This document shows, piece by piece, positions 41,511 through 64,000 of a DNA stretch of 64,000 nucleotides (within the stretch, counting starts at the first letter, position 1; every line of letters starts with the position of its first letter). The stretch is from Cyanidioschyzon merolae (lineage: Eukaryota). Made by a program: the position numbers and the translations under genes. The DNA is taken from NCBI GenBank assembly GCA_000091205.1, contig AP006485.2; one strand, written 5' to 3'. The notes below the pieces were generated by a model. It made no database searches. It had not been told where the DNA came from and saw only the letters and a list, made by a program, of their open reading frames with translations.

Positions 41511-41544
<34 letters not shown>

Positions 41545-47199: not shown

Positions 47200-47850
47200 A
47201 GAACCGGACGACGGCCACGCACCAAACGCCGTTCTGAAGCAAAACGTTGTCGCCGTCAGCGGTGGACAGTTGTGGCGAGAAACTCGCTATGGACAAGACG
47301 TCCCCAACTGACGTGCAGACGCCTCCCCGCCGGTTTGGACCGGCCACCCACAACTGATTCCAACTTTTTTTTTTAATATAGTTCCACTTTGAGCGGTTGT
47401 CCCTTAAAATTCTCTCTTGTCCACTCTGGAGGTCTTCTCTCCAGCACCGCACATCTCCTCATATTGATTGCTGCGTTCAGGTCTCGGTTCACGAACTCCA
47501 TACGTCCACTGCCTCTTGCTAAACTCATCATTGCGAGCAGTCCTGGCACTCGCGCCTTCTGTTCCACGACAGTCTTGTCACCTTCTTCTTCTGCTTGGTT
47601 CATTGCTGGTCTTCTCTCGATGGTCGACGAGAAGAGAAATTTTTCTATTTTCACCGGTACCTGGCAATGGCGGCCCTCCAGAATCCCAGACTTCCGTCTT
47701 CACACCTCTCCCTCGGTGTTTTTCCTCAAATAAACGCAATTCGACCACGTCTGCTATCAACTCGCGAGAGAGAATTTGACTACACGCACCTGGGGGTATC
47801 ACGCAATTGAGCTGAGAGATTATACCAAGCGAAAACACTCCGACACGATC
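47200..47850 (-). mobile_element. Fragment (copy C) of the Fanzor/TnpB-like element family: 3' end only, retains the RuvC-III motif
   Basis: ORF 47373..47654 (-) encodes '...MEFVNRDLNAAINMRRCAVLE...' (RuvC-III). Shares the invariant block 'ccaactgacgtgcagacgcctccccg' and 'ggaccggccacc' with copies A, B and D. About 80% identical to copy A over ~450-650 bp. Lies immediately upstream of the VPS13 start codon. Confidence 0.55.
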
Positions 47851-48222
47851 GATGCGCTATGACGTCAGATCATCCGCTGGAAACGACGACTACATATGAG
47901 CGCGCGCTGTACGACGAGTCTACCATCATCAACAGCGGTAATATTCAGATCACTTTGGCGGTGTATCTGTGCATTGTGGCAGCTTTACAGTCCAAGGCCG
48001 CGCGTGAAAGCGTCTCTTGTGATCCTCGATCTGAGGCAACGTATGCGTCATGTGCATGAATCGAGCGGCGATTTCCATTCAAGGCTACTCCAAACCCTAA
48101 TTCCAGCTTGCGATCATGAAAAGCCTCCGCAAAGTGTTCGCAAGCTCAAAGACTGTCGTTTCCGCTAAGATTCGGCTCGTGCACGGCTGAGTCGTCATCA
48201 TTCTGAATCGTATTTTCGGCGG

Positions 48223-49431
48223 CTACCGCTCACGCTCAACTGATTCCAGCATTTCCGACACATATCGCCACACCGTGTTCGGATCCTGGTCGTGCGGGCA
48301 ATGACCGACAGCTTTCAGAGCAACAAATCGATCCACATGTGGATTGCGTGCAAACAGCTCTCGTCCGAGGGCGAAAGGTTCCCACGGATCACGCTCTCCC
48401 CAGAGGACCCAGATTGCGGGCGGATCTTTTCGAGCAGTTGCAGCCATCTGTGCAATGCTTTCGACGAGCTCCTCTGCCAGCGGGCCGCGATCATACGACG
48501 TGAACGCTAGAAATACATCCAGAGCACCGGGGCGCCTGCTTGGGGCCCGAATCCGCTCTACGAGCTCGGTACTGATGATCTGGTCCGCCTCAGGGCCATC
48601 AACAGCGTAGGCTGAGCAGAGTAACCTGCGGAGCGTCGCTGGCCGAGATACCAGAGAGAAGAAAAACTTCGCCACGGGACGAAATCCCAATACGCGCAAC
48701 GCTAATGGAGTCGTCCAGACGCGCAGACCCCGTCGTTTCTTATAGTGCAGCTGGCGAAGAGACGGATTCAGACACATAACTGCCCGAATACGCGTGCCCT
48801 GCATACCAGGATGCTCTACTGACTGGCGCAGCATGTCGCAAGCAGCTTGAAGTGCGGCAACACAACCGATTGAATTTGCAACGAGAACAACATCACGCTG
48901 TTGCGAAATCCCGGTATCTGACGCGGTCACCACAACAGTATTGATGAAATGAAGGATCTGCTGTGCCCAGCTTTCAAACGTGTACGAAAATGTCGGAGAG
49001 CCAACTTTGCCGTCGCCTTGCGTCGTGAACAGCGGTGGTGGCATATCAGCATCACCAAAGCCCAGCAAATCCAGCGCATACGCGTCGTAGCCCGCCTCCG
49101 AAATGATGTTGAGCATCTTCTGCCAGTGAAATGCCCCAGCACCGAAACCGTGAATGCATATCACAGCAGGCCTTGCCGGTGACGCCGGCGGAGCTGCAGG
49201 TTTCGCCCAGTACGTACAACGGAATCTTTCAAACAAGTAATCTTCTTGCCGAAAACCTGGCGGCAACGGTAGGAGCGGTTGAACACTCCTTAAACATTCC
49301 TCGAAAACACCACCTACATTCGTAGTGGGGTCAGCGCTCAAAGTAGAGTCGAAGTCACGACGGCCCGTTGCTCTCAGAGCGCTGTTCACCGAGTGCCCGT
49401 TTCCTTCATTTACGTCAGCCTTAACACCCAT
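48223..49431 (-). CDS. Alpha/beta-hydrolase fold protein (~402 aa)
   Basis: 'VICIHGFGAGAFHWQKM' (HGxG oxyanion region), 'GHCPHDQDP' (His of the triad near the C-terminus) and 'LVANSIGC' (nucleophile elbow GxSxG-like). The six-frame ORF extends to 49851, but its first 140 codons lie in the repeat element, so the start is set at Met141 (codon 49429-49431). Confidence 0.65.
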   Translation of the reverse strand: MGVKADVNEGNGHSVNSALRATGRRDFDSTLSADPTTNVGGVFEECLRSVQPLLPLPPGFRQEDYLFERFRCTYWAKPAAPPASPARPAVICIHGFGAGAFHWQKMLNIISEAGYDAYALDLLGFGDADMPPPLFTTQGDGKVGSPTFSYTFESWAQQILHFINTVVVTASDTGISQQRDVVLVANSIGCVAALQAACDMLRQSVEHPGMQGTRIRAVMCLNPSLRQLHYKKRRGLRVWTTPLALRVLGFRPVAKFFFSLVSRPATLRRLLCSAYAVDGPEADQIISTELVERIRAPSRRPGALDVFLAFTSYDRGPLAEELVESIAQMAATARKDPPAIWVLWGERDPWEPFALGRELFARNPHVDRFVALKAVGHCPHDQDPNTVWRYVSEMLESVERER

Positions 49432-49555
49432 AACGGCTCCAGTGCCTCCAGGCCGAGGGAGCTGACGCCTTCTAGCACTCAAGAGCGAGCGTCGCGGCCG
49501 TTCGTTACTTTTCGAGTGAAGCAGCACCGGTGCCAGGCGACAATGACCGAAGCGC

Positions 49556-50167
49556 TCACCCGTACAAACCTCTGAAACGTACCCTGGGTGGACACTCGCA
49601 CCAACACAAAACATCTTTCCAAAGACAAACGTTGCCCCCGGCCGTGTACAGTAGTGGCGAACGCGCCCTAGGCAAGGGGTCTCCAACTGACGTGCAGACG
49701 CCTCCCCGTTTTTTTGGACCGGCCACCAACGTCTGCTTCCATTTTTTCTCATATAGATCGACTTTGAGAGGTTGTCCAATAAAATCCTCTTGTGTCCAGT
49801 CTGGAGGTCGTTTCTCCAGCACCGCACATCTCCGTATATTGATAGCGGCATGAAAATCTCGGTTCACGAACTCCATACATTTCGTGCCGTTGGGAGCTGT
49901 ACTCACCAATACGAGTAACCCTTGAACTTTCGCCTTCCTTTCCAGTTGCTCCTCCGCCAGCGGTCCGTACTTTTGCAATTTCCTCAGCGCTCTTCTGGCA
50001 CTTTTCCATCTCCACCCTCTGAAGCGTGCAGCCCAGTTCCTGGTATGTATAGGACGTCCGGAACTCATATACAGGTATCGTAACGAGACGCCGGGCGCAC
50101 TCCTTGTACAGCTTCGTCGCTGGAGCTGGCGTAGTTCCTTTTCTGTTCTTCCAGTGCCTTGCTCCAT
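49556..50167 (-). CDS. Fanzor/TnpB-like nuclease, C-terminal segment with RuvC-III (copy A)
   Basis: '...[26 protein letters not shown]...' matches the TnpB/Fanzor RuvC-III consensus (NRDxNAAxNI) preceded by a Zn-finger Cys. The last ~20 codons read into flanking DNA beyond the repeat boundary. Confidence 0.55.
   Translation of the reverse strand: MEQGTGRTEKELRQLQRRSCTRSAPGVSLRYLYMSSGRPIHTRNWAARFRGWRWKSARRALRKLQKYGPLAEEQLERKAKVQGLLVLVSTAPNGTKCMEFVNRDFHAAINIRRCAVLEKRPPDWTQEDFIGQPLKVDLYEKKWKQTLVAGPKKRGGVCTSVGDPLPRARSPLLYTAGGNVCLWKDVLCWCECPPRVRFRGLYG
49600..49760 (-). ncRNA. Candidate omega-RNA (scaffold/guide) region at the 3' end of the copy A Fanzor-like ORF
   Basis: A nucleotide-invariant 26-mer across all four copies plus conserved 'ggaccggccacc' and 'aaacgttg' blocks, located where TnpB/Fanzor omega-RNAs map. 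Assigned by inference only. Confidence 0.15.
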
Positions 50168-50837
50168 ACGCTTCTACGAGCTTCTGACGGTCATCCTCCT
50201 TGAGGGCGCTCAACTGATTGAAACAATTCGCAAACGCCCGCTGCTTCACACCGTATAGATTCATTCGCAGACGAGCCCACCGGGGCTTTCTATACTCCTC
50301 CCACAGCGCATCCCAATGGGCAACACGAAATTCCATGAATTTCCGAAAAGCTTCACAGACCGCTCCGCGGCTCGTCGCCTCGCTCAAAGCTTCCAGGTGA
50401 TGCTTTATTCCTGCATTCCACGTAACGATTATCATCCTTGCATTCACTACAACGGATTCTCGATAGTATCTCGCTCTCGAGAACCTCAGCAGACGCATGT
50501 CTTTCTGGCGTAAATTACCGTCCATGCCATCTTCCGCACGCTTCGGTGCTGCGATGGTGATGATATTCGTGTTCCCAGGATCCGCGCCAACCACAATGTC
50601 TTTATCCTGCACTTCCTGTGTGGCAGGATCCGCCTCTTTCTTTCCTTGATGCTTCGTCGCGTCAACCATAAAGTCGTTATCCTGCACATTCTGTTCGGCA
50701 GGATCCGCCTCCTTCTGACCTTCATCCTTCACCGCGCCAACGACACGGTCGTTATCCTGCACTTTCTGCATCACAGGTTCCGCCTCTTTCTCTTTTTCAT
50801 CCTTCACCGCGTCAGCGACAAAGTCGTCATCCTGCAC
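49749..50837 (-). CDS. Fanzor/TnpB-like nuclease, central segment with RuvC-I and RuvC-II (copy A)
   Basis: '[18 protein letters not shown]' (RuvC-I, GxDPG) and '[22 protein letters not shown]' (RuvC-II Glu plus the first Zn-finger Cys). Frame shifts relative to the RuvC-III segment between ~50000 and ~49900. Confidence 0.55.
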
Positions 50838-50872
50838 CTCCTGTGTCGCAGGATCCGCTTCTTTGATTTTTT
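50575..50872. repeat. 75-bp tandem repeat (x ~4) inside the Fanzor-like ORF, copy A
   Basis: Encodes 25-aa units '[25 protein letters not shown] / [25 protein letters not shown] / [25 protein letters not shown] / [24 protein letters not shown]'. The last unit is the RuvC-I strand. Confidence 0.6.
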
Positions 50873-51182
50873 AATGCTTCGCAGAGGGCGAAGCGAAAGG
50901 CACAATCGGACGGTCCACTTTCAAGCGCCGATAGTGTACATACAAGGTTACTCCATCGGTCTCGATCAACGCAGTGAATACCTTTTGGCTTCTCACTTTG
51001 AGCCGTTTGAAATTGAAGATGTTCTTCAAGTACGTCGCCCGGTTTTCACCGGTGAAGTCATCCCTGCTAACAGTGAACACTGGACTGATCTCCTTCATGA
51101 TGCCGTAAAACACGTCCGAATCGATATTCACGAAACGTGACTTGATGCTGCACATTGGAACCACGTTGAAGCGCTTACCCAT
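50871..51182 (-). CDS. Fanzor-like nuclease, upstream segment '[21 protein letters not shown]...' (copy A)
   Basis: Identical to the copy B segment 57672..57983. Separated from the RuvC-I segment by a single in-frame TAA. Reading through in frame gives '[17 protein letters not shown]', a further unit of the internal repeat. Confidence 0.4.
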
Positions 51183-51203
51183 TAGGAAAGCCTTCCGTCT
51201 CTC

Positions 51204-51941
51204 CTACTCTTCATTTGTCTTTTCGCTCAGGTTCATCTCCGCTTCGCGTTCGAGCTCCGGGTCCAAGAACACAGAATACCGTACGACGATGCGATAGTAT
51301 CTCCCCTGATCCTTTTTCAACTCTGATATCTTTTCTGTTGGATTCACCAGCCCCAAGATTGCACGGCGCTCTTGTATAGCCGCACGGATCACAGATGCTT
51401 CATTCGTGCTCCTGCGTGACGTCTTCTTGTCGACAAATTCGACCTCATCTTCATGCTTGCGATCTTTCGTTATGCCATTGATAGTCGCCTATATTCATTT
51501 GAGAGAGCTGCCTGGGTAGAGTGCAAAAACGGCGCGTATCATGAAACGTTCGAGTTTCACGATCACGTGACTCTCCAGTTTCGTGATGTACTTCGTCGCC
51601 CCTTATATGTAAACATTCGAATCACCCCTGTATGGAGTACTGTTGAAGCTGTAGAGGGGATGTTTTTCGTAAAGGCCATGCACTAGCACATTTTCCCTCC
51701 GCGTTTCCGCTGTTCCAAGCATCAGGTATCGAATAAAGGTCTCGTCGAATAACTCGTCCAGAATCTCGACCGTTTCCATGTTCGCGACGTCTTCGTACAT
51801 CTCCCTCGCCAAATGCATCAGTCTTGACGACGCCTTGAAAATACTCTTGGAGTACGAATCGAAACGTTTTTCGATAGCGTCTCGCAACTTTTCCCTGTAC
51901 GGATCCTTGATGTGTCCAAGAAGAAAGATTTTCACCTCCAT
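51204..51941 (-). pseudogene. Disrupted N-terminal region of the copy A Fanzor-like gene
   Basis: Homologous to the continuous 252-aa ORF of copy B (57983..58741) but split into 51603..51941 and 51204..51392 by a 1-nt deletion and an in-frame TAG (tgg->tag) 7 codons upstream of the MGKRF Met. Confidence 0.4.
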
Positions 51942-52151
51942 CTCATTCTACAGTCATCTTTCCCGCCGCCTTCGACGTAGGGCCTCTCGCTTTCAGTTCT
52001 TCTTCTCTCCTGTTTCTTCTGGACTCGGCACTGCTTTTTGTTTGTCTCTAGCGGCCGGCGACCCCGGCCCTCCAGGAGCGTCGACTTGCTTTTTCATAGC
52101 TTTCCGTTTTTTAGTTTTTTCTTGAAAAACAACGCTCTGTGAACCCTTCTG

Positions 52152-52158
52152 TTATATA
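52152..52158 (-). promoter_or_regulatory. TATA-like box (TATATAA on minus strand) ~210 nt upstream of the copy A nuclease ATG
   Basis: 'gaacccttctgttatatactgcg' is conserved in copy B ('gaacccttctattatatactgcg') at the same distance. Confidence 0.2.
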
Positions 52159-52813
52159 CTGCGAAAAACACTTGACTAGACTTGTTTGAAGTTTCAAACA
52201 GAAACGAACTTAAAGCCTGTACTTGGCTACGACCTGAACGGAAATACAACTTTTTACAGATGAACAACACGCTACTGATCCCAATCGCGTTTCCCTTCAA
52301 CGAAGGCATACGCATCGTGTCAGTTGATTCCCCGATCTCCCAGATGCGATTACCGAGCGCGATGCGTGCGCCTCGCGAGACACCACGCCGATCGATGAAG
52401 GACACGTGCCTCAAGCCCATAGTGCAAAGAAACAGAGCTCGCTCGGGGGCACGCCTGCGCTATCGCTTTTGGCGCGAAACGCGAAATCGAAACCGCGCCT
52501 GCAGGGATCGTCTCGAACCGTTTCTCCTTCGCCGTGATCATCGATTGCCGCGGATTCGAGGCATGGTGCGGGGGAATTTGAATCGCTCGTGGGCTCTGTC
52601 GTTGCCGCTGCTGGACGTAAATATTTTTTTAGAGTTGGTGTTGTTCAACGGACGGCTGGGAACGGGCTCTTTCTCGTTCACGACACTAAATATTTTCCAT
52701 CAAAAGAAGTTTTATACAAAGGTTTCCAAAGTATAATATCAGGATTTGCTACGCTCATGGTATTTTTGGAGAGCAATATACGTAGAGGCCGCCCAGGAGG
52801 TCAAGGCTTTCGG

Positions 52814-53006
52814 ATGAAGCCTTCGCTATTTATTATTTGTTTCATACTTTGCAGTGTGTTCGCGTCTCTCGTACGGGCAGCGACTGTGACACCTACACCG
52901 ACTGCGACTGCGACACCGACTGCGACACCGACACCTACACCTACACCTACACCGACACCTCCATCGGCTACGACACCGACACCGACACCGACACCTCCAT
53001 CGGCTA

Positions 53007-53043
<37 letters not shown>

Positions 53044-53066
53044 TCCATCGGCTACGACTACGACTA

Positions 53067-53097
<31 letters not shown>

Positions 53098-55207
53098 TCC
53101 ATCGGCTACGACTACGACTACGACACCGACTGCGACACCGACTGCGACACCGACTGCGACACCGACTGCGACACCGACTGCGACACCGACTGCGACACCG
53201 ACTGCGACACCGACACCTACACCGACTGCGACACCGACTGCGACACCGACTGCGACACCGACTGCGACACCGACTGCGACACCGACTGCGACACCGACTG
53301 CGACACCGACTGCGACACCGACTGCGACACCGACTGCGACACCGACACCGACACCGACTGCGACACCGACTGCGACTGCGACTGCGACTGCGACTGCGAC
53401 TGCGACGGCGACTTCTACGGCAACTCCGACACCGATTGCGACGATGACTCCGACAATTACATCATCGCCAACGATTACTGTAACAGCGTCTCCAACGACA
53501 GTGACGATGACACCGACGATGACTCCAACTGCAACAACGTCACCAACAATCGTGCCGACGACGATTGCCACCTCGATTGCGATATCCGTTCAGAATCTTT
53601 CTCTTTGTTTGGCCGTGGCGACGGATTTGCAGAACGATCTCGAGGCTCGCTTCACGGGCCTGGTAGTGAATGTCAGCGTGACTGATAACTGCGACACGGT
53701 CTTCGGTTCGGGCACATCAAGGCGCCTCGCCACCACATTAGACAAGAGCAATCCTCGTCTGGAACGAGCATTGGTGCGCACGTCGGGCGGCAGTGTTGTG
53801 ACCTATGTGATTAAGATCTCAGGAGACACATCCCTCGCCAGTGATGCGCAAAGTGTGCTTCAAACTTTCACCGACCAGCTTTCTACAATTCTACCCTCTG
53901 GTGCGACACTTGCTATTATAACCCCGACACCGAGTGCAACGCCAACACCAGTTTGCACGAGTGAAATCTGCGGTTCTCCGGGCCAGTACACAAACCGGGA
54001 CGCTTGCGAGCAAGTCGGGTGCTGCTTTAACTCCCAGACGAACGCGTGCACCCTGAAGAGCGTCTCAGCGGCCTGCAGCGCTGTTCCAGTGACGCAGCGC
54101 GTCCCCTGCGGCTGGAGCTACATCTACCCCGACGAGTGCACTGCGATACCGGGATGCTGCTGGCAGCCAACGGCGAACGGCATCCTGGCACCCTGGTGCT
54201 ACTACGACATCAACCATGCACCGCAGGCCTCTGTAGCGCTGCAGGAGGTGCAGGCACCGGTTCCCCTCTGCCCGTCACCGGGAGCGCAGCGCCAGCCGTG
54301 CGGCAACGCGGGCATCAACCAGTTTACGTGCTATGCCCAGGGCTGCTGCTACGACTCGCAGGCGCAGAACCAGTGGGTGCAGAACGGCAAGCAGCAGAGC
54401 GACTTTGCGTCGAACCCGTACTGCTTCCAGCCCGAGAAGACGTGCGCGGTGGGCGAGTTTGAGCGCCAGCCGTGCACGAACGCGGTGAATCAGAACCAGC
54501 AGCTGAACAATAACATCAACAACAACCAGTTTGTGCGTCTGCTGAACACGCTTCTGTACGGAGAGCAGCACGGGACGCAGCGCACGAGCTACTCGCCGCA
54601 GCAGTGTCTGGAGGCTGGTTGCTGCCTGGGGCTCAGCAACGAGTGCTTCCAGCCGATGACCGAGTACGTGTGCCAGACCTACGGGTATGTGTCGAACTCG
54701 CTGAGCGGCACGACCGGCAACGTATCGAACTCGAGCTATATTCCGTGTGGCCCGGAGTGCTGCAACGCCGAGACGCAGAACTGCACGTACAACCCGTTCA
54801 GCAACAACAACAACCAGCAGCAGCAGCAGCAGCAGCAATTGCAACAACTGCAGCAACAACAGGTGCTGCTGCCGTCATTCTGTGTGTGCAAGGACCCTAC
54901 GAAGCAGTGCGGGACGTACCTGATCCCTTCGGATAACCTTGTGAACAAGGTGCGTTGCTGCCGCGCTGACGAGGAGTGCATCAACAACCAATGTGTGGTG
55001 ATTAGTCCAACACCGACTCCGAGTCCCGTGGCTGTGACAGCGACACCCTCTGCGACGGTGTCTGCAACAGTCTCTGCGACAGCTTCTGCGACGGTGTCTG
55101 CGAGTGCATCAACGAGTGCATCAGCGAGTGCTTCAGTTTCAGCCTCTGTGTCGACGTCTGCGAGCGCCTCGGAATCAGCGACATCTTCAGCTCCACCGAC
55201 TGCGTGA
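52814..55207 (+). CDS. Secreted mucin-like Thr/Pro-rich protein with 3-4 trefoil (P-type)-like cysteine domains
   Basis: Signal peptide '[23 protein letters not shown]'. Contains ~180 aa of (PTPTAT)n. Cys modules are '[21 protein letters not shown]', '[22 protein letters not shown]...APWCYYD' and '[22 protein letters not shown]...NPYCF', all matching the trefoil pattern RxxCGxxG..C...GCC[FWY]D..PWC[FY]. Also has a poly-Q/N tract and a Ser/Ala/Thr-rich C-terminal tail. Start taken as Met76 of the 872-aa ORF. Confidence 0.75.
52884..53440. repeat. 12-bp coding minisatellite (accgactgcgac)n encoding (PTAT/PTPT)n
   Basis: Read directly. It creates long shadow ORFs in other frames and on the opposite strand. 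Confidence 0.85.
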
Positions 55208-56355
55208 GCGAACGTTTCAACTGTTAATTTGCCCACAGTCTAGATCACGTCTATGCTGATCCTCTGTTGCGACAATATTCCACTCATGTTCACAAGACCC
55301 GAGAGTACGAATGAACGAATGCGTTAATGTGGATATTTGTGCGCGGAGTGTCATCTGAGGTCCTCTTCGGGAACTTACATTCAGAGATCTGATGAACGGA
55401 AAGAATGGACCAGAATTTGCTTTTGGAACGTAAAGGAATGATTACCTATGCCTATGAGCTTGCCCCCGATGATAGCCTTGGTGGTAATGGCGGTATCTTG
55501 GTACCCTTTCTTCTCTTTGTAGTCGGAATACGGTTTCCGAGTTGCATGTAGCGAGTATGTCTGCAGTAGAGCGTCTGGAACTGTTTTTTTAGTTTCGTTG
55601 TACTTGAGCACATTCTAGTCCTGAGGAGAGGTTCTGGAGCAAGTTTGACTCGATCCGTACAACCGCAAATTTCACCAAAATACGATTCCTCTTGAGGAAA
55701 AGCTGGTATTCGTGACGCCTGCATACGGGCTCCGGCTCCGCTTGGCACGAATGGAAGCAGGGCCGCCAGCCTCACAGCGCACTTATAGCTCTAACATTGA
55801 AAGTGCTTATAGCTTGTTCTGTCGGTCGAGGCATCCTCTCGATATATTCACCACTGTTGCCTACCGTTGCTCGTAGGCTACGTCCATAAAACCGTCTGAA
55901 GTGTTGTGCTGATTTCCGGATTATGTTTATGTCTTGTACACTAGAAAAAAACGAGAACGAAGTGGTGGTAAGCCGTGAAGACGTAGATGCGCAGTTACCG
56001 TTACTCGGTCCAGAGGCACATCATGCCAGGCAGTCACATCCTGAGACGAGCTGTACGCTATGTAAGCATTACCACAGCACCTTGAGCACAGCTGGAGGCA
56101 TTCTAGAAGCGGCCAGTATCGATTCTAAACAATTGATCTTGTTCTATATCATTGCAAACAAATTGGTAAACGGATCCGTTGCTAATAAATGGACACAGGG
56201 CCCTCGGAAGATAGATAAACGACAAGGCAGCGGATGATGTATCGAATACAGAAGAACTCGAGTTGCCCATTTTCCACATTTTCTGTCACATCAGTCCTGT
56301 TACAGCCATGGCAGCAATATCTTCACGAAAAGCATCAACTATTACCACATATACT

Positions 56356-56967
56356 CTAGGTACTCTTCGCAAATACGTTCTGAATAAGCGACGTGACGCG
56401 CCCGCACCGAACGCCTCTCAAAAGACAAACGTTGCCCCCGGCCGTGTACAGTAGTGGCGAACGCGCCCTAGGCAAGGGGTCTCCAACTGACGTGCAGACG
56501 CCTCCCCGTTTTTTTGGACCGGCCACCAACGTCTGCTTCCATTTTTTCTCATATAGTTCAACTTTGAGAGGTTGTCCAACAAAATCCTCTTGTGTCCAGT
56601 CTGGAGGTCGTTTCTCCAGCACCGCACATCTCCGTATATTGATAGCGGCATGAAAATCTCGGTTCACGAACTCCATACATTTCGTGCCGTTGGGAGCTGT
56701 ACTCACCAATACGAGTAACCCTTGAACTTTCGCCTTCCTTTCCAGTTGCTCCTCCGCCAGCGGTCCGTACTTTTGCAATTTCCTCAGCGCTCTTCTGGCA
56801 CTTTTCCATCTCCACCCTCTGAAGCGTGCAGCCCAGTTCCTGGTATGTATAGGACGTCCGGAACTCATACACAGGTATCGTAACGAGACGCCGGGCGCAC
56901 TCCTTGTGCAGCTTCGTCGCTGGAGCTGGCGTAGTTCCTTTTCTGTTCTTCCAGCGCCCTGCTCCAT
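56356..56967 (-). CDS. Fanzor/TnpB-like nuclease, C-terminal segment with RuvC-III (copy B)
   Basis: '...[20 protein letters not shown]...'. About 98% identical to the copy A segment. The C-terminal tail diverges where the ORF reads into flanking DNA. Confidence 0.5.
   Translation of the reverse strand: MEQGAGRTEKELRQLQRRSCTRSAPGVSLRYLCMSSGRPIHTRNWAARFRGWRWKSARRALRKLQKYGPLAEEQLERKAKVQGLLVLVSTAPNGTKCMEFVNRDFHAAINIRRCAVLEKRPPDWTQEDFVGQPLKVELYEKKWKQTLVAGPKKRGGVCTSVGDPLPRARSPLLYTAGGNVCLLRGVRCGRVTSLIQNVFAKST
56400..56560 (-). ncRNA. Candidate omega-RNA region at the 3' end of the copy B Fanzor-like ORF
   Basis: Same invariant blocks as copy A, but the adjacent distal segment differs ('gcaccgaacgcctctc' vs 'gcaccaacacaaaacatctttcc'). 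Confidence 0.15.
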
Positions 56968-57136
56968 ACGCTTCTACGAGCTTCTGACGGTCATCCTCCT
57001 TGAGGGCGCTCAACTGATTGAAACAATTCGCAAACGCCCGCTGCTTCACACCGTATAGATTCATTCGCAGACGAGCCCACCGGGGCTTTCTATACTCCTC
57101 CCACAGCGCATCCCAATGGGCAACACGAAATTCCAT
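56558..57136 (-). CDS. Fanzor/TnpB-like nuclease segment with RuvC-II / Zn-finger start (copy B)
   Basis: '...[32 protein letters not shown]...'. Separated from the RuvC-I segment by a private frameshift. Confidence 0.5.
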   Translation of the reverse strand: MEFRVAHWDALWEEYRKPRWARLRMNLYGVKQRAFANCFNQLSALKEDDRQKLVEAYGAGRWKNRKGTTPAPATKLHKECARRLVTIPVYEFRTSYTYQELGCTLQRVEMEKCQKSAEEIAKVRTAGGGATGKEGESSRVTRIGEYSSQRHEMYGVREPRFSCRYQYTEMCGAGETTSRLDTRGFCWTTSQS

Positions 57137-57152
57137 GAATTTCCGAAAAGCT

Positions 57153-57638
57153 TCATAAGACCGCTCCGCGGCTCGTCGCCTCGCTCAAAGCTTCCAGGTG
57201 ATGCTTTATTCCTGCATTCCACGTAACGATTATCATCCTTGCATTCACTACAACGGATTCTCGATAGTATCTCGCTCTCGAGAACCTCAGCAGACGCATG
57301 TCTTTCTGGCGTAAATTACCGTCCATGCCATCTTCCGCACGCTTCGGTGCTGCGATGGTGATGATATTCGTGTTCCCAGGATCCGCGCCAACCACAATGT
57401 CTTTATCCTGCACTTCCTGTGTGGCAGGATCCGCCTCTTTCTTTCCTTGATGCTTCGTCGCGTCAACCATAAAGTCGTTATCCTGCACATTCTGTTCGGC
57501 AGGATCCGCCTCCTTCTGACCTTCATCCTTCACCGCGCCAACGACACGGTCGTTATCCTGCACTTTCTGCATCACAGGTTCCGCCTCTTTCTCTTTTTCA
57601 TCCTTCACCGCGTCAGCGACAAAGTCGTCATCCTGCAC
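57153..57638 (-). CDS. Fanzor/TnpB-like nuclease segment with RuvC-I and the 75-bp repeats (copy B)
   Basis: '...[18 protein letters not shown]...' identical to copy A. Truncated at 'RGAVL*' by the private 1-nt insertion. Confidence 0.5.
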
Positions 57639-57671
57639 CTCCTGTGTCGCAGGATCCGCTTCTTTGATTTT

Positions 57672-57983
57672 TTAATGCTTCGCAGAGGGCGAAGCGAAAG
57701 GCACAATCGGACGGTCCACTTTCAAGCGCCGATAGTGTACATACAAGGTTACTCCATCGGTCTCGATCAACGCAGTGAATACCTTTTGGCTTCTCACTTT
57801 GAGCCGTTTGAAATTGAAGATGTTCTTCAAGTACGTCGCCCGGTTTTCACCGGTGAAGTCATCCCTGCTAACAGTGAACACTGGACTGATCTCCTTCATG
57901 ATGCCGTAAAACACGTCCGAATCGATATTCACGAAACGTGACTTGATGCTGCACATTGGAACCACGTTGAAGCGCTTACCCAT
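57672..57983 (-). CDS. Fanzor-like nuclease upstream segment 'MGKRF...' (copy B)
   Basis: 100% identical in amino-acid sequence to 50871..51182. Confidence 0.4.
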
Positions 57984-58741
57984 TAGGACAGCCTTCCGTC
58001 TCTCCCAATCTTCTTTTTTTCTTCACTCAGCTTCATCTCCGCATTTCGCTCGAGTTCTCGGTCGAGAAACATGAAATAGCGCAGAATAAGACGATAGTAT
58101 CTTTCCTTATCTTTTTTCAACTCTGATGTCTTGTCTGTTGGATTCGCCGGCCCCAAGATTGCACGGTGCTCTTGTATAACCGAATGGATTACAGAAGTAT
58201 CATTCGTGCTGTCGTTAAACGCCTTCGTGTCGACGAATTCGACTTCACCTTCATGCTTGCGATCGTTCTTGATGCCGTTGATAATCTCCCATATTCCTTT
58301 GCGAGAGATACCCGGGTACAGCGCAAACACGGCGCGTATCATGAAACGTTCGAGTTTCATTGTCAAATGGTTCGTCAGGTTCGTGAGGTTCTTCATCTCC
58401 CCATAGTCGTAAATACTCCGGTCCCCCTTGTATCGAGTACCCTCGAAGCCGTAAAAGGGATGTTTTTCGTGGAGGGCATGAACCCGCTCGTTTTCCTCCC
58501 GCGCTTCCACTGTTCCAAGCATCAGGTATCGAATAAAGGTCTCGTCGAATAACTCGTCCAGAATCTCGACCGTTTCCATGTACGTCACGTTTTCGTACAT
58601 CTCCCTCGCCAAATGCATCAGTCTTGACGACGCCTTGAAAATACCCATGGAGTACGAATCGAAACGTTTTTCGATAGCGTCTCGCAACTTTTCCCTGTAA
58701 GGATGCTTGATATGTTTAAGAAGACAGGCTTTCACCATCAT
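57983..58741 (-). CDS. Fanzor-like nuclease N-terminal domain (copy B), 252 aa continuous
   Basis: 'MMVKACLLKHIKHPYREKLRDAIEKRFDSY...'. About 80% identical to the split copy A region. Ends at a TAA overlapping the MGKRF ATG ('cTAATGg'), caused by a 1-nt loss in a poly-A run. Confidence 0.5.
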   Translation of the reverse strand: MMVKACLLKHIKHPYREKLRDAIEKRFDSYSMGIFKASSRLMHLAREMYENVTYMETVEILDELFDETFIRYLMLGTVEAREENERVHALHEKHPFYGFEGTRYKGDRSIYDYGEMKNLTNLTNHLTMKLERFMIRAVFALYPGISRKGIWEIINGIKNDRKHEGEVEFVDTKAFNDSTNDTSVIHSVIQEHRAILGPANPTDKTSELKKDKERYYRLILRYFMFLDRELERNAEMKLSEEKKKIGRDGRLS

Positions 58742-58951
58742 CTCGTCGTACAGTCGTCTTTCTTGCCGCCTTCGACCTAGGGCCTCCCCCGTCGGTCCTT
58801 CTTCTCTCCTGTTTCTTCTGGACTAGGCACTGTTTTTTGTTTTTATTTCTGGCAGCAGGCGACCCTGGACCTACGGAATCGTCGACTTGCTTTTTCATAG
58901 CTTTTCTTTTCATTTTTTTTGTGTGAAAAAGAACGCTCCTTGAACCCTTCT

Positions 58952-58958
58952 ATTATAT
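58952..58958 (-). promoter_or_regulatory. TATA-like box upstream of the copy B nuclease ATG
   Basis: Conserved with copy A at the same spacing (~211 nt). Confidence 0.2.
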
Positions 58959-60209
58959 ACTGCGAGAAATCAATTGAATATGTTTACTTGAGGGTTGAGA
59001 CACAATCGAACTGGAAACTATGATTTGTTACGACTTCCACGCAAATACAGCTTGCCCGTTAGAACATCAAGAAAACGTGTCGTCACGGTCGCGTTTCTCT
59101 TCAAAGGCGACAGATGCGTCGTGTCTCGTAAGTGCCATACTTGGAGATGCACGTATCAAGCGCGCCATACAGGAAAAAGGACAGTGACCTACGATTTACA
59201 AGAAACGATATAAAATTTTTTCCCGCTCTACGATAAGCGTTTAAGGGGAAACAGATCGCCGTATTATCGGAAGCTTATGTTCGAGGCGGTAGGTCCCGCG
59301 AGCCGGTCGAGTCTACCGGGCTAGAGCTCGGTATCCCTCTTAAGTGGCTGCTGCCGCTGCTGCTGCTGCTGCTGCAAGACCTGCGCAGCTCGTTCACAAC
59401 GCATTTTATCCTGAGACTATGCACAGGATGCTGCGTTGGGCCTCGCCCTGGTCGCAGTGGAACCCTAGTATAGCGCTTCGCGCTGCCGTAGGTAGTGGGT
59501 CTGTCTGCCCATTTTGCATGTTTCCAGAATGACAAATAGCCCTGATTCCGTTTCAGGTGAATCATCCTCCCAGAGGACGCCCTTATTGGTATGGCAAAGC
59601 CGTTCTGTCTCTGTACAGCACCTGCTTGAGCGGTATAAGCGCAACAGCGGGTGCTCACAACAGGCTCGGCGCTCGATAGAACATACGAAACGACCAGTGT
59701 ATCAGAGAGGAAGTATGGGTAATGGGACTTGAGGACAGGTGCACTATGACAGTGATATCCCCGGAAGCCATTATCCGTTCCGAATTCTGGGATCCATGGG
59801 CAATGTAAACGTTTTTTCATCAAAAAGAAAAAACGCCCCGAGGCGGACTCGTCATCGAGACGCACATCCCTCTGGATCGAATCTCCGGAAGGCGCTTCTG
59901 GGCGATCGCAAAAGCCCTCAAGTGCATCTTTGTATTCTCAACGGATAGCATGCTTTATTCGGAGCGCTCAGTCTCGAGCGTTCCCTCTAACTTTAAGCAA
60001 TAGCTTCGTAGATCAGACAGCTGTGTTGTCAAAGAGCACTGTACCTAGTTTTGGCGAGGTCTATAGTGCTGGAGAACAAAACGATCACGGGTTTGTAGCG
60101 ATCTCGGCACCAGTGCTAGAAACAACCCTGCACTGGAGCTCGTGCGATCTAAAACCTGTAGTCGGACTTTTTAGAAGATCTGTCTGGCAAGGAAACAAAT
60201 CGTGGAACT

Positions 60210-61286
60210 GTGCTCTTTGGAATGACGTCGGGGATCGACGAGGCAGCGGCTGAGCTTCAGGGAAGTCTCTTTGGGGAGGTCTCGCCTGCGATCGACTCGC
60301 CGGGTGCGGCGCTTGCACGTTCGTACCCCGTCCGCATCACCGTTGTCGGAGCTGGTGACGTTGGCGTTGCTTGCGCCTATAATATTTTGACCCGAGATAT
60401 TTGTAGTGAGCTGGTACTGGTGGACGTTCTCAAGGACAAACTCAAAGGTCAAGTTATGGACTTGCAGCATGGAGGTGCGTTCTACAGCACCCGCATCCGG
60501 GCTGCCGAGTCCTACGAGGATACAGCACATTCGGCAGTATGTATTATAACGGCAGGTGTGCGTCAGCGGCCCGGAGAAAGTCGTCTTGAGCTCATGGATC
60601 GCAATGCCGCATTGTTCAAAGGCATTATTCCGCCCCTGGTGCAGTATTCGCCGAACACAATCCTGTTGATTGTGAGTAACCCCGTTGATCTATTGACACA
60701 TCTAGCGTGGCAGATGAGTGGCTTGCCTCGCGAACGTGTGATTGGCTCAGGGACATATTTGGACTCTTCGCGTTTCCGCACACTTCTGGCGCAGCGGCTG
60801 GGCATCGATACCGCTTCCGTCCAGGCCATGGTACTGGGCGAGCACGGAGACTCCTCGTTCGTGTACCGGAGTGGTATTACGGTTGGTGGCGTGCCGTTGC
60901 GAACATGCTTCGAGCGCATGACCGACGCTGCGAGCGCGTCCACAGCATTCTATGATCTGGTGAAAGGTGTCCATCAGCAAGTTGTAGCCGCGGCTTACGA
61001 GGTCATTAAGCTGAAAGGCTACACCAACTGGGCCATTGGCAGCGCTGTTGGAAGTATCGTTACAACGATTGTGCATGATCGGCGCAAAGTGCTGCCAATA
61101 ACGACGCATGCGGGCTCGATGCGAGGCCTCGAGTCGGCGGATGTATTCTTGTCGTTGCCTTGTGTGCTAGGTCGGAATGGTGTCGTTGAAGTACTACAAA
61201 TACTGCCGTTCATGGAAAGTGACGAGAAAGAAGACCTCCAATCCAGTATAGAGGCACTCCAGAGCACGCCGAAGAAAGCATCTTGA
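60210..61286 (+). CDS. L-lactate/malate dehydrogenase family protein (LDH-like, Rossmann NAD-binding)
   Basis: 'ITVVGAGDVGVACAYNIL' (GxGxxG), the 'ITAGVRQRPGESRLELMDRN' substrate loop, 'LLIVSNPVDLLT' and the catalytic His region 'VLGEHGDSSF'. About 358 aa with an N-terminal extension. Confidence 0.8.
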   Translation: MLFGMTSGIDEAAAELQGSLFGEVSPAIDSPGAALARSYPVRITVVGAGDVGVACAYNILTRDICSELVLVDVLKDKLKGQVMDLQHGGAFYSTRIRAAESYEDTAHSAVCIITAGVRQRPGESRLELMDRNAALFKGIIPPLVQYSPNTILLIVSNPVDLLTHLAWQMSGLPRERVIGSGTYLDSSRFRTLLAQRLGIDTASVQAMVLGEHGDSSFVYRSGITVGGVPLRTCFERMTDAASASTAFYDLVKGVHQQVVAAAYEVIKLKGYTNWAIGSAVGSIVTTIVHDRRKVLPITTHAGSMRGLESADVFLSLPCVLGRNGVVEVLQILPFMESDEKEDLQSSIEALQSTPKKAS

Positions 61287-62399
61287 GCATGTTGCCTGCG
61301 CATGGTAACGCGTTGGATGCGGATCGTTTACAGGGACGTTAATCAAATGCCTCGTCGAAGTGCGGGCTCTGCACAAGCGTGCTCGGTCTGTACTCAAAAT
61401 AAGCGGATGGACAAGGAGGACTGAACTATGCTGGATACCTATGCCAAACTGGTAGGTCTTGGCACCGTAGAAAAGGTGTGGAGGGGAGCGTCCGTAGCCA
61501 TCTCGGCGAGCTTGTTTCAAATGGACAGCATTGCTGAAGGACCAGGTGGCACCAGAATTGCAGCTGCAGAGTAGCGTTCGCCTACTATCATCATTGAAAC
61601 CTGCTAGTCGTGTCATGGATACCGGACGTGCTGGAGTTCGCATCCGCAACAGCGAACAAGGATCAAATCAACTGACTCAAAATTCTCCAAAGCGATGCGT
61701 GGATGAAAGCTGGCGAAAGTTGCGGGTCTGGTACGGCATAACGTACGCTTACCCGGATGCCGATATGTATCGCGCCTGACCCGAGATACCCTGGTTCAGG
61801 TCAACCATTCTAAACCGCAGGATAAAAGTATGCCATGATTTAACGTTCACTGATGTTGGCTGGACGGCATCGCAACGCTCCACGAACCTGGGCGCGGCGC
61901 CGAAGGCTTAGTTTCCGAGTATGACCGTGACAGACTTTGCTCTATGCGTACGGATCTGGAAAACACGAGTCGAAAGTGTGCATCAGCACGCATGGGCGAC
62001 GAATAAAACCCTTAAAGCGACGTGCGAACAGTGACCTAACGATGCAAGTGGAACGAACCGAATACCCTGAGGTAGGTATGATGGCACAGCTTCTGCCTTG
62101 AGAGCAGCTGCACAAGCGCTTCAGTGCGGTAAAGCCGAAATCGTGCCGAAACGTCCGAGTCGCGTCAGCGCTTCTAGTGAACAGGAATGTGCCTCCAGCT
62201 TCTCTGACGTTCCTCTCGCGTCCCAGCAATTCTGGTACAAAGTTTCGCTCTATGCAGCACAGGCGCTGATGCAGCGCTCCTTCGGAAGCCCTGCCTTCCG
62301 CAAACTTGCACCGAGACGTTCCGTACGCAGCTATCGTGGTTATGCTTCAAAACCGGAACGGTATTGCAGTGTCTTGGAAGCGTCGGCTAGAGCTTCTGA

Positions 62400-64000
62400 G
62401 ACCGAAACGTCTCGTAAGACCACCGCACCCGACGACAACAAACATCTTTCGAAACAAAAACGTTGCTGCCGGCAGTAGACAGTACTGGCGAGAAACTCGC
62501 CCTAGACAAGAAGTCGCCAACTGACGTGCAGACGCCTCCCCGTCTTTTCCGCCCGGCCACCTACTGTGGGTACCATTTGTTCTTATATAGTTCCAGTTTA
62601 AGAGGTTGTCCAACAATGGACTCTCGTGTCACCGCTGGGAGCTTTTTGTCTATTCCCGCACATCTCCGTAGATTGATTGCAGCGTTAAAGACTCGGTTCG
62701 CGAACTCCATACGTTTCTTGCGGTTGACAGTCGTACTTACTAATGCAAGTAGTCCACGAGCTTCTCCCCTCCTTTCCATTTCCTCTCCCGTCAGCTGTCC
62801 CTTACTTTTTTATATCATCAGGACTCCACTGGCACTTTTCCATCTCCATCTTCTGAAGAGTACATCCCAACTCGTGGTGTGTATACGATGTTCGGAACTC
62901 ACCCACAGGTACCGTAGCGAGACCCAGTGCGCACTCCTTGCCCATTCCTGCCGTTGGAGCTGGTGGAGTCCCTTTTTTTCGGAGCCCAGCTCCCTACACC
63001 ATATGTAACAACGAGCCTCTGACTTGATCCTATTTCAAGGCGTTCAATCGATTGAAAAAGCTCGCGAATGCGTGATGCTTACCACGGCACAGATTCATAC
63101 GCAAACGTGCCCAGCGGTGCTTTGTATACTCGCCCTACAGCGCCACGGAATGAGCAACCCCAACTTCCAAAAATTTCAGAAAAGCTTGAATGTCCGCTCA
63201 TCGGCTCGTCACCACGCTCAAAGCCTCCAGGTGATCCTTCATTCCTACATTCCACGTAACGATCTTCTTCCTTGCATTCATTATACCGGATTCTCGATAG
63301 TATCTCTCTCTCTCGAAAACCTCAGCAGAAGCATATGTTTGTGGCGTAAGGTGCCGTCAGTGCAATCTTCCCTTCGCTTGTGAACAGCGATGGTTATGAG
63401 ATTCGTGCTCCAGGGACTAAGGCCGACGCCAAAGTGGTTTTCATGGGGCTTATACGTTCCATAGCCCGTCAACCTGTGTTCGTTCTTCGGCAAGGGCCGT
63501 AAAGAAAACGGGATAGGACGAGCTGCCTTCAACCGCTGATGGTGTACACATATGTGCGCCACATCGAGATCGATTGTTCCAGTGAATAACCTTTTTTTGG
63601 CCGGTTCGGGACACTTGAAATCGAAGATATTCTTCTCGTAGGCGTCCCGATCTTCACCGGAGACCTATTTGTTGATTACATCGAGCTATGGATAGATCTC
63701 TATCCTGAAGATGCAAAAGGACTATGGGGTCAATATACACAAAATGTGACTTGAACGCGCATAACCGACCGACATTGAAGCGCATCTGGAGAAGACTTCA
63801 ATGTCGTTTCTCGCACTCGTCTTTTTTTCCACACTCAGCTCCATGCCGACCCTGCGATCGAGGTCTCGGACCGAAAACATGAAGCAGGGCAGGATAAGAG
63901 AGTAACAACTCTCTCCGTCGTTTCTCATATCCGAGAGTTTTCTCTTGGGTTGACATGACCCAAGACCGAACGATGTTTTAGAATAGTCGCGCGAATTACA
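62400..64000 (-). mobile_element. Degenerate copy D of the Fanzor/TnpB-like element (continues past the window end)
   Basis: About 75% identical to copy A from the 3' end through the RuvC-I region and beyond (63600-63960 aligns to A 50990-51260). The RuvC-I Asp is lost ('GLSPWSTNLITIAV') and the RuvC-III Asp is replaced ('MEFANRVFNAAINL'). The invariant 26-mer is nevertheless 100% retained. Confidence 0.5.

Follow-up and report, generated by a model that had tools for sequence, protein, structure and literature searches.

Four repeats on a Cyanidioschyzon merolae chromosome interpreted as decayed insertions of CMe-1A, a Fanzor1-carrying transposon

CMe-1A was described by Bao and Jurka in 2013 (Mob DNA 4:12, PMC3627910), who listed it in Cyanidioschyzon merolae with ~150 copies and provided its consensus DNA and protein in the supplement. 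The consensus is 3169 bp long and has no TIR; it encodes a protein of 734 aa, CMe-1, in a single exon, and its 5' arm is in part common to the short element TE-N2_CMe. In the Fanzors, the guide RNA derives from the 3' non-coding region adjoining the right end of the element, while the protein bears an N-terminal NLS and a C-terminally shifted catalytic glutamate (PMC10530073). The Fanzor guide is flanked by a stem-loop, its scaffold comprises ~120 nt, the RuvC-I motif is defined by a DPG signature, and a CCCC zinc finger is ascribed to "many", not all, of these proteins (bioRxiv 10.1101/2023.08.09.552727).

The window, i.e. the whole 64,000-nt stretch of DNA analysed here, belongs to chromosome 3 of C. 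merolae 10D, as judged from the exact matches of its proteins to XP_005535383.1 (CMC182C) and XP_005535386.1 (annotated as LDH). It contains four repeats, all in the same orientation on the minus strand, as the first-pass annotation had claimed (Table 1). With a probability of about 95%, we regard them as decayed insertions of CMe-1A, the only transposon family with a Fanzor1 in C. merolae. The published consensus maps onto all four: it covers copy B end to end, with its 5' 630 nt on 59182-59821 (77% identity) and its 3' 579 nt on 56412-56987 (85.5% identity), and its 3' piece maps onto copies A, D and C at ~80–85%. CMe-1 shows 74% identity to the frame-corrected window protein over 578 aa. 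Both ends of CMe-1A, CGATGACAAAACGTTTACATTGACC... on the left and ...TTTTGAAAGGCG on the right, recur in the window copies, and TIRs are absent from consensus and copies alike; the left end of copy B reads TGATGAAAAAACGTTTACATTGCCCATGGATCC, compared to CGATGACAAAACGTTTACATTGACCATGGATCC in the consensus. The lineage is not new, because CMe-1A and CMe-1 come from the same genome, and the earlier suggestion that it may not have been described has to be withdrawn. The copies A and B had been taken to be ~2.85 kb long each; B turned out to be longer owing to its 5' non-coding arm, and A is truncated at the 5' side by ~0.8 kb. The fragment C retains the RuvC-III motif RMEFVNRDLNAAINMRRC at 47451-47504.

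Table 1. Positions of the CMe-1A copies and their features in the window
Feature	Position	Strand	Remarks
Copy B, full-length CMe-1A, pseudogene	56412..59822	-	3.41 kb; from consensus mapping, frames and lesions
Copy A, 5'-truncated CMe-1A, pseudogene	49612..52252	-	consensus 3' end at 49615-50187; several stop codons; similarity to B begins at 52252
Copy D, degenerate CMe-1A	62443..64000, continues beyond window end	-	consensus 3' end at 62446-63022, 80.5%
Copy C, 3' fragment (RuvC-III and 3' non-coding arm)	47227..47566	-	positions 243-579 of the consensus 3' piece, 79.9%
RuvC-I, DPG signature, 15 residues including GADPGN	B 57351..57395; A 50550-50594	-	Asp invariant in 63 family members
Shifted RuvC-II Glu motif, 15 residues	B 56828..56872; A 50028-50072	-	family consensus VDEFRTS
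RuvC-III, RD..NAA.N, 18 residues	B 56626..56679; A 49826-49879	-	aligns to the NRD motif of three solved Fanzor1 chains
In-frame TAA (GAA to TAA)	B 57672-57674; A 50871-50873	-	common to A and B; consensus KHEEKKEADP
Frameshift between RuvC-II and RuvC-III, caused by a run of A lengthened by one	B 56771-56774; A 49971-49974	-	common to A and B
Tandem repeat of 75 bp, 3.8 copies of an acidic 25-aa unit	B 57383..57665; A 50582-50864	-	between WED strand (IETDG) and RuvC-I
5' non-coding arm of copy B	59182..59822	-	CAG microsatellite at 59347-59375
Conserved 3' non-coding arm and terminal hairpin	B 56412..56532; A 49612-49732; C 47227 to ~47355; D 62443 to ~62570	-	candidate omega/fRNA scaffold

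Searches with a single sequence and with 11 sequences returned no match in Pfam or in the PDB, so the assignment of CMe-1 rests on a deeper profile and on the predicted fold. In the profile test set beforehand, the family profile built from 63 sequences gave significant matches in the PDB solely to Fanzor1 chains (PpFz, SpuFz and GtFz, with E = 1.3e-22, 4.6e-16 and 2.5e-11), and 20 of the 63 family members showed a weak match to the Cas12f1-like TNB family in Pfam. The AlphaFold (AF2) model, which represents an intact relative (62% identical) and not a window copy, was obtained with pLDDT 82 and pTM 0.80. In the Foldseek comparison of this model with the PDB, the top seven matches are all Fanzor1 (SpuFz, PpFz and GtFz; E-values from 3e-16 to 3e-13, TM 0.70 on target length), and Cas12 proteins begin in the list only at E ~0.01. 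All three RuvC motifs of the family line up with the catalytic ones of these Fanzor1 enzymes. Both the profile and the predicted fold thus indicate that CMe-1 is a Fanzor1 protein, in keeping with the TnpB/Fanzor-type RuvC nuclease element of a eukaryote proposed by the first-pass annotation. Inspection of the sequences revealed also a basic N-terminal tail, a putative nuclear localisation signal, in the CMe-1 consensus (KKRK...KKQKREARRQRLQERRQ) and in the relatives P0055 and P0060.

All three RuvC motifs were found in copies A and B at their previously assigned places. In RuvC-I, the D and G residues are invariant among the 63 relatives and the P residue is conserved in at least 90%; the profile alignment pairs this motif with DPGRRD and DPNKRD of PpFz and SpuFz, respectively. 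The Glu residue of RuvC-II is invariant as well and aligns to IDEFRTSSFC (PpFz) and LDEYKTSSVC (SpuFz). The identification of E-x-R-T-S as RuvC-II was correct as far as this Glu is concerned, but the residue occupies the C-terminally shifted position typical of Fanzors, not the canonical position of TnpB, which is lost: the upstream strand (VVAYGAG/AYGsAkf) has no Glu and is aligned to a Gly-containing strand of SpuFz. R724, D725, N727, A729 and N731 of RuvC-III are invariant, and so is the complete set of catalytic residues (D484, E656, D725) in the 63 sequences. What had been read as the start of a zinc finger is not one, as the CxxC pairs are missing from the CMe-1 clade: the two pairs expected of a CCCC finger between RuvC-II and RuvC-III occur in 0 of the 44 parsed relatives, 41 of which have none at all. 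Because the literature gives the finger to "many" Fanzors and not to all, its lack marks a variant, not an exclusion from Fanzor1; nonetheless, the finger is present in SpuFz1 and TnpB, and the activity of the CMe-1 clade therefore cannot be assumed.

All four window copies carry stop codons and/or frameshifts and an intact ORF is found in none of them; they are pseudogenes, unable to make the protein, and hence nothing in the window can be active. To credit A and B with coding for a protein of ~795 aa was too strong, since both are interrupted and a product of ~790 aa emerges only after frame correction. Apart from the TAA codon and the extra A common to A and B (intact relatives read EEIAKYGPL through the latter site uninterrupted), several further lesions were found. 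Two frameshifts break the N-terminal tail of copy B, and copy D has lost the Asp residues of both RuvC-I (GVGLSPWS, in which GLSPWS stands for the motif; 63386-63430) and RuvC-III (NRVFNAA, 62660-62713). The window copies are thus individual decayed members of CMe-1A, with features of their own. The CAG microsatellite in the 5' arm is a feature of copy B that differs from the consensus. The internal 75-bp repeats noticed before are indeed present in A and B; the published consensus contains a single unit and copy D none, and the equivalent stretch of the AF2 model (residues 374–470) is disordered, with pLDDT <50. The repeat represents a disordered linker that has grown from one unit to ~3.8.

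The 3' non-coding arm (~120 nt) is conserved at 80–99% per column among 65 copies, equally to the coding sequence, and the conservation falls a few bases past position 56412. Frame-breaking indels occur in this arm among the copies. Its predicted folds are stabler than those of shuffled sequences (z -2.6 and -4.3) and the terminal hairpin coincides with the right end; the covariation observed in the arm equals the shuffle mean, RNAalifold gave almost nothing and no match was found in Rfam. By analogy with the characterised Fanzors, the 3' arm is predicted as a candidate scaffold of the guide RNA. As regards the ends of the element, conservation extends ~7–10 nt beyond the published right end (TTYGNTG), and a T-rich octamer adjoins the published left end.

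Could the four copies stem from a single host region that underwent segmental (tandem) duplication, instead of from separate insertions? They share one orientation, which is only a 1-in-8 event, and the copies A and B, spaced by 6800 bp, are 97–100% identical over 1.3 kb. However, the similarity ends at the ends of the element, with no homology of the flanks beyond, and the intervening genes, i.e. the alpha/beta hydrolase, the Trefoil-domain mucin and the annotated LDH that the first-pass annotation had also located there, are unrelated. The comparison of flanks between different copies, which revealed no relationship, implies independent insertions, and dozens of metagenome contigs carry the same element in surroundings unrelated to one another. 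Moreover, A and B are only 71–89% identical in the 5' third; such a mosaic does not fit a recent duplication and suggests that the two old copies were homogenised later by gene conversion. A segmental duplication is therefore very improbable. Four copies in 17 kb are far above the genome average (~0.15 would be expected from 150 copies in the 16.5-Mb genome of C. merolae), but transposons often cluster, and the copies are remnants within a part of the chromosome that is rich in transposons. A family of domesticated host genes, in which a nuclease or a DNA-binding protein has been co-opted, would explain why some copies remain intact despite ~20% divergence (PMC3627910) and why intact ORFs are found in related genomes, yet it is hardly credible in view of the ~150 copies, the lesions in all four members inspected here, the conserved non-coding ends typical of a mobile element and the varying contexts of insertion.

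More serious is the alternative that CMe-1 is a Fanzor1 relic devoid of nuclease function, which for instance binds DNA under RNA guidance or is carried along inertly, and that the 3' arm does not yield a guide RNA but acts in cis as the end that a transposase recognises, similarly to the 3' hairpins of Helitron or IS200/IS605 elements. The zinc finger missing across the clade, the hairpin placed precisely at the right end and the lack of support from covariation for a larger RNA fold all agree with this scenario, and Chlamydomonas CrFNuc-1 was found to bind its own RNA without cleaving (PMC10530073). On the other hand, the invariance of D/E/D in 63 diverse members argues for retained catalysis, and it is the whole 120-nt arm that is conserved, not the hairpin alone. 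Besides, the roles in transposition and in guiding are not exclusive, as the right end of TnpB elements serves both. On balance, the loss of nuclease function appears rather unlikely, if worth keeping in mind.

On the reading of the locus as decayed CMe-1A insertions, an intact element of ~3.2 kb consists of a 5' non-coding arm of ~0.85 kb, an intron-less ORF of ~734 aa and a 3' arm of ~120 nt, which the hairpin closes on the right. Its protein, a Fanzor1, comprises a basic tail at the N-terminus, an extended helical REC region, the WED domain and a split RuvC domain, whose catalytic residues are the Asp of DPG, the C-terminally shifted Glu of DEFRTS and the Asp of NRD. If intact copies behave like the characterised Fanzors, their protein may associate with a transcript of the 3' arm, and the 3' end of this RNA would run into the flanking DNA and act as the guide; the complex may then cut matching DNA beside a short adjacent motif, and the cutting could help the element to persist or spread. 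The copies A and B of the window would have undergone gene conversion after insertion, and their linker repeat grew to ~3.8 units. Intact relatives include an ORF of 752 aa on a metagenome contig of hot-spring type as well as full-length proteins with 31–38% identity. It is conceivable, though doubtful, that the intact members in Cyanidiales populations form an active zinc-finger-less Fanzor1 clade of an acid- and heat-loving alga, with the ~120-nt 3' arm (three hairpins plus the terminal one, and CAGUAGUGG/CCACUACUG as the closing helix) as the guide RNA and the T-rich motif of the left end as the target-adjacent motif. In itself, our result matters little: the family was already on record for this genome in 2013, and its copies at this locus are dead. 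Nevertheless, the first-pass annotation recognised a Fanzor from the letters alone, which single-sequence searches and Pfam had missed, so that the locus is a useful positive control for such annotation, and the candidate guide-RNA arm with its defined ends, the finger-less clade and the metagenome relatives could aid the testing of a Fanzor from a thermo-acidophilic eukaryote.

Among the known systems, Fanzor2 (IS607-type, e.g. ApmFz2) resembles CMe-1 in its DPG motif and in the shift of the glutamate, but CMe-1 is much longer, CMe-1A lacks a serine recombinase, and no Fanzor2 structure appeared among the significant profile or Foldseek matches in the PDB. TnpB of IS200/IS605 (e.g. ISDra2) and Cas12f share with CMe-1 the split RuvC domain with D/E/D, and the weak TNB matches mentioned above point in the same direction; CMe-1A would also follow the logic of TnpB in that its guide RNA is read from the right end. 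However, the structural match to these proteins is far weaker (E of 0.01 or higher for Cas12). The canonical RuvC-II Glu is replaced in CMe-1, with the catalytic Glu moved towards the TS motif; CMe-1 also has roughly double the length, large insertions in REC, a basic N-terminal tail and a eukaryotic host, and its clade lacks the zinc finger present in TnpB and, within Fanzor1, in SpuFz1. The closest solved structures are those of SpuFz1 (8GKH, 9CEU-9CEZ), PpFz (9CF0-9CF3) and GtFz (9CER-9CET). Their identity to the CMe-1 family is only 13–15%, and CMe-1 is known here from its sequence and predicted fold, but the homology is evident at the profile level, the overall fold (WED, large helical REC, split RuvC and NUC) is shared with the AF2 model, and all have the Asp of DPG, the Asp of NRD and, within (D/E)E(F/Y)(R/K)TS, the shifted Glu.

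Self-BLAST and four-way alignment of the window, together with ORF listing and repeat finding, revealed four mutually related copies (A–D), each on the minus strand, so that the cluster of four same-strand repeats proposed in the first-pass annotation is borne out, and the RuvC motifs that it quoted were found where it had placed them. The regions flanking and separating the copies show no mutual similarity by self-BLAST within the window, hence the copies represent separate insertions rather than a duplicated block. C. merolae has been reported to harbor one Fanzor1 family, CMe-1A (Bao and Jurka, Mob DNA 2013, PMC3627910), with ~150 copies, each ~80% identical to a 3169-bp consensus that lacks TIRs, has undetermined target duplications, encodes a 734-aa single-exon protein and shares its 5' 635 bp with the short element TE-N2_CMe. 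Over 578 aa, the published consensus protein and the frame-corrected protein of the window are 74% identical; the consensus DNA was aligned to copy B (from 59821 to 56412), and its 3' part to A (from 49615), D (from 62446) and C (47227–47566). Thus, the literature already covers the family, with its long N-terminal region, and the genome, and the suggestion that the lineage and its long N-terminal domain might be undescribed is not upheld: they are those of CMe-1A. The internal 75-bp repeats, also proposed as possibly new, are indeed present, but their novelty reduces to a copy-level detail, namely the expansion of a 25-aa linker unit from 1 in the consensus to ~3.8 in A, B and some metagenome relatives. 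The observation itself is therefore confirmed and the Fanzor interpretation supported, while the hint of novelty is not.

Features of the window discussed in the text
Feature	Coordinates	Strand	Remarks
Copy A	49612-52252	-	
Copy B	56412-59822	-	
Copy C	47227-47566	-	~340-nt piece of element 3' end
Copy D	62443 to past 64000	-	
75-bp tandem repeat, A	50582-50864		3.8 units
75-bp tandem repeat, B	57383-57665		3.8 units
In-frame TAA, A	50871-50873		consensus GAA
In-frame TAA, B	57672-57674		consensus GAA
Extra A in A-run, A	49971-49974		
Extra A in A-run, B	56771-56774		
CMC182C	36701-47152	-	3483 aa; exact match XP_005535383.1
542-aa "hydrolase" ORF	48223-49851	-	artefact
Alpha/beta hydrolase	start 49428	-	402 aa; between copies; Pfam Abhydrolase_6, E=2e-17
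Thr/Pro-rich Trefoil-domain protein			between copies; Trefoil E=7.5e-13
12/18-nt tandem array	52881-53412	+	~44 units
Lactate dehydrogenase			between copies; exact match XP_005535386.1 (C. merolae 10D)
CAG/GCT microsatellite	59347-59375	-	9.7 units
snR75 match (Rfam snoRNA)	59784-59872	-	E=0.35
T-rich octamer	59823-59830		

Pfam searches with the raw ORF pieces and the frame-corrected protein returned no match, neither phmmer nor an 11-sequence profile detected any PDB sequence, and the only precomputed Pfam label on the relatives was a weak DUF8286. The homology search identified 66 close relatives, nearly all from JGI metagenomes; an intact 752-aa ORF (P0001) exhibits 62% identity, and three full-length relatives (31–38% identity) carry basic N-terminal tails. 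When 1.84 billion representatives were searched with a profile, 2933 relatives were found with E<=1e-3 (405 with E<=1e-30), mostly of 600–650 aa. The catalytic Asp/Glu/Asp columns (D484, E656 and D725 in P0001) are invariant in a 63-sequence alignment, and the corresponding profile, the only one among the sequence searches against the PDB with the depth needed to reach Fanzor1, matched at E<=10 exactly three distinct sequences, each of them a Fanzor1: those from Parasitella parasitica (9CF0, E=1.3e-22), Spizellomyces punctatus (8GKH, E=4.6e-16) and Guillardia theta (9CER, E=2.5e-11). All three RuvC motifs align with the corresponding catalytic motifs of these proteins, and the Glu of "EFRTS" occupies the C-terminally shifted position of the RuvC-II glutamate, a Fanzor hallmark (PMC10530073; bioRxiv 10.1101/2023.08.09.552727). 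The Pfam Cas12f1-like TNB domain was matched by 20 of the 63 members (best E 7.5e-8). From this alignment, AlphaFold2 modelled P0001 with good confidence (pLDDT 82.4, pTM 0.80), the repeat region being disordered. When the model was compared with the PDB by Foldseek, Fanzor1 structures took the first seven places (E 3e-16 to 3e-13, TM 0.70 by target length), Cas12 families first appearing at E>=0.01. With the family profile leading to Fanzor1 chains and the predicted fold to Fanzor1 structures, the TnpB/Fanzor RuvC nuclease assignment of the first-pass annotation stands on both counts on which it could have failed. The family belongs to Fanzor1, and its catalytic residues are kept across the wider family.

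The copies in the window are relics: three-frame translations and alignment identified no intact one among the four. Two lesions are common to A and B: an in-frame TAA where the repeat block begins and, between the RuvC-II and RuvC-III motifs, an A-run that is longer by one A. B has in addition lost one nucleotide near 58018, gained one near 57157 and acquired two frameshifts in its basic N-terminal tail; A lacks the first ~0.8 kb of the element and contains several additional stop codons; D has many lesions, including loss of the RuvC-I Asp (GLSPWS) and of the RuvC-III Asp (NRVFNAA). The frame break between RuvC-II and RuvC-III, apparently common to A, B and D, was considered as a programmed frameshift or an intron, but this was rejected because intact relatives read through the site uninterrupted (EEIAKYGPL); moreover, D seems to have gained another base there (an extra G). 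The identity of A and B at this site is attributed to gene conversion: mid-element they are 97–100% identical over ~1.3 kb (A 49880-51214 versus B 56680-58014), compared to 71–89% in the 5' third and 93–98% at the 3' end, a mosaic which suggests that conversion took place between old copies separated by 6.8 kb.

The exact matches of CMC182C and the LDH to C. merolae 10D proteins place the window on chromosome 3, in keeping with its G+C content of ~55% and its lack of introns; no inverted repeats of >=40 nt were found in the region by the repeat search. The 542-aa ORF owes its first ~140 codons to the 3' end of copy A, translated in a different frame, and the true hydrolase is the 402-aa form; metagenome gene callers repeat this mis-call (542-aa cluster representative). 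The 12/18-nt array codes for the Thr-Pro-Ala repeats of the mucin-like Trefoil-domain protein, and a weak match at the N-terminus of CMC182C to an ATG2/VPS13-like chorein domain (ATG2_CAD, E=1.5e-10) stays below the Pfam cutoff.

Scanning of metagenome contigs with a 17-mer from the conserved non-coding 3' arm returned 120 loci; with L001 counted, the element is present in 77 of 121, and just one of these 77, L001, retains an intact Fanzor ORF. Loci L023, L056 and L069 (JGI) are 96–100% identical to the window, flanks included, so close relatives of strain 10D exist in public environmental data. According to the alignment of 5' ends, B reaches ~59822 and conservation begins with TGATGAAAAAACGTTTACATTG, the published left end. 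The T-rich octamer directly adjoins this end in 9–10 of 12 independent insertions (copy B and loci L005, L016, L032, L059, L071, L082, L089, L107), the farther-out sequence being unrelated; it could reflect a target preference or adjacent motif, or else a few unrecorded terminal bases of the element. The microsatellite in the 5' non-coding arm of B recurs in the near-identical L056 and is missing from other aligned copies. The snR75 match overlapping the left end of B (23 bits versus a gathering score of 40) is most likely due to chance, and so may be the short match, seen by eye, of the left end GACAAAACGTT to the right-end hairpin arm AACGTTTGTC.

The consensus ORF ends with TAGTAG after ...LYEKKWKQ, and the following ~120 nt equal or exceed the coding part in conservation (80–99% per column in 65 copies), although frame-breaking indels distinguish copies there; the arm ends with ...GAAAGGCG, and conservation fades ~7–25 nt beyond the published right end. 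This non-coding right arm is thus conserved; an RNA structure in it is plausible but unproven. Minimum-energy folds are more stable than shuffles for the consensus (z -2.6) and L001 (z -4.3), and both predict a closing helix CAGUAGUGG/CCACUACUG, three internal hairpins and a terminal hairpin. The latter is predicted in most copies (mean z -1.5, 15/42 below -2), sometimes shifted in register or with a wholly different stem sequence (L054). RNAalifold on 42 copies gave almost no structure (-6.9 kcal/mol), a brute-force helix scan gave many G/U-rich candidates without a clear winner, and Rfam only sub-threshold chance matches. The L001 structure projected on the copies equals shuffle means in pairing and covariation, in a sample of closely related, mostly dead copies with the 17-mer fixed by the locus search; it beats slid controls because it was derived from one of the sequences. 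By analogy with characterised Fanzors, an intact copy would be expected to supply its nuclease with an RNA that runs from the right arm into the flank, and the loaded nuclease would cut matching DNA beside a short motif. The right ends of C (47227) and A (49612) lie ~75 bp and ~184 bp upstream of the same-strand start codons of CMC182C and the hydrolase, respectively, so a read-out transcript or "guide" would stem from those promoter regions.

What remains of value is the candidate guide-RNA arm and a zinc-finger-less clade from a thermo-acidophile. The predicted arm fold resembles Fanzor1 RNAs, described as "three stems plus a stem-loop flanking the guide" with a ~120-nt scaffold (bioRxiv 10.1101/2023.08.09.552727). 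Two CxxC pairs between RuvC-II and RuvC-III were found in none of 44 relatives; among the ~60 nearest representatives (the whole subfamily) the CCCC zinc finger is likewise absent, with at most scattered Cys, the consensus from RuvC-II to RuvC-III being DEFRTS...VRGLLWCxST...FVNRD. SpuFz1 and TnpB possess a CCCC zinc finger, whereas the CMe-1A clade is without it.
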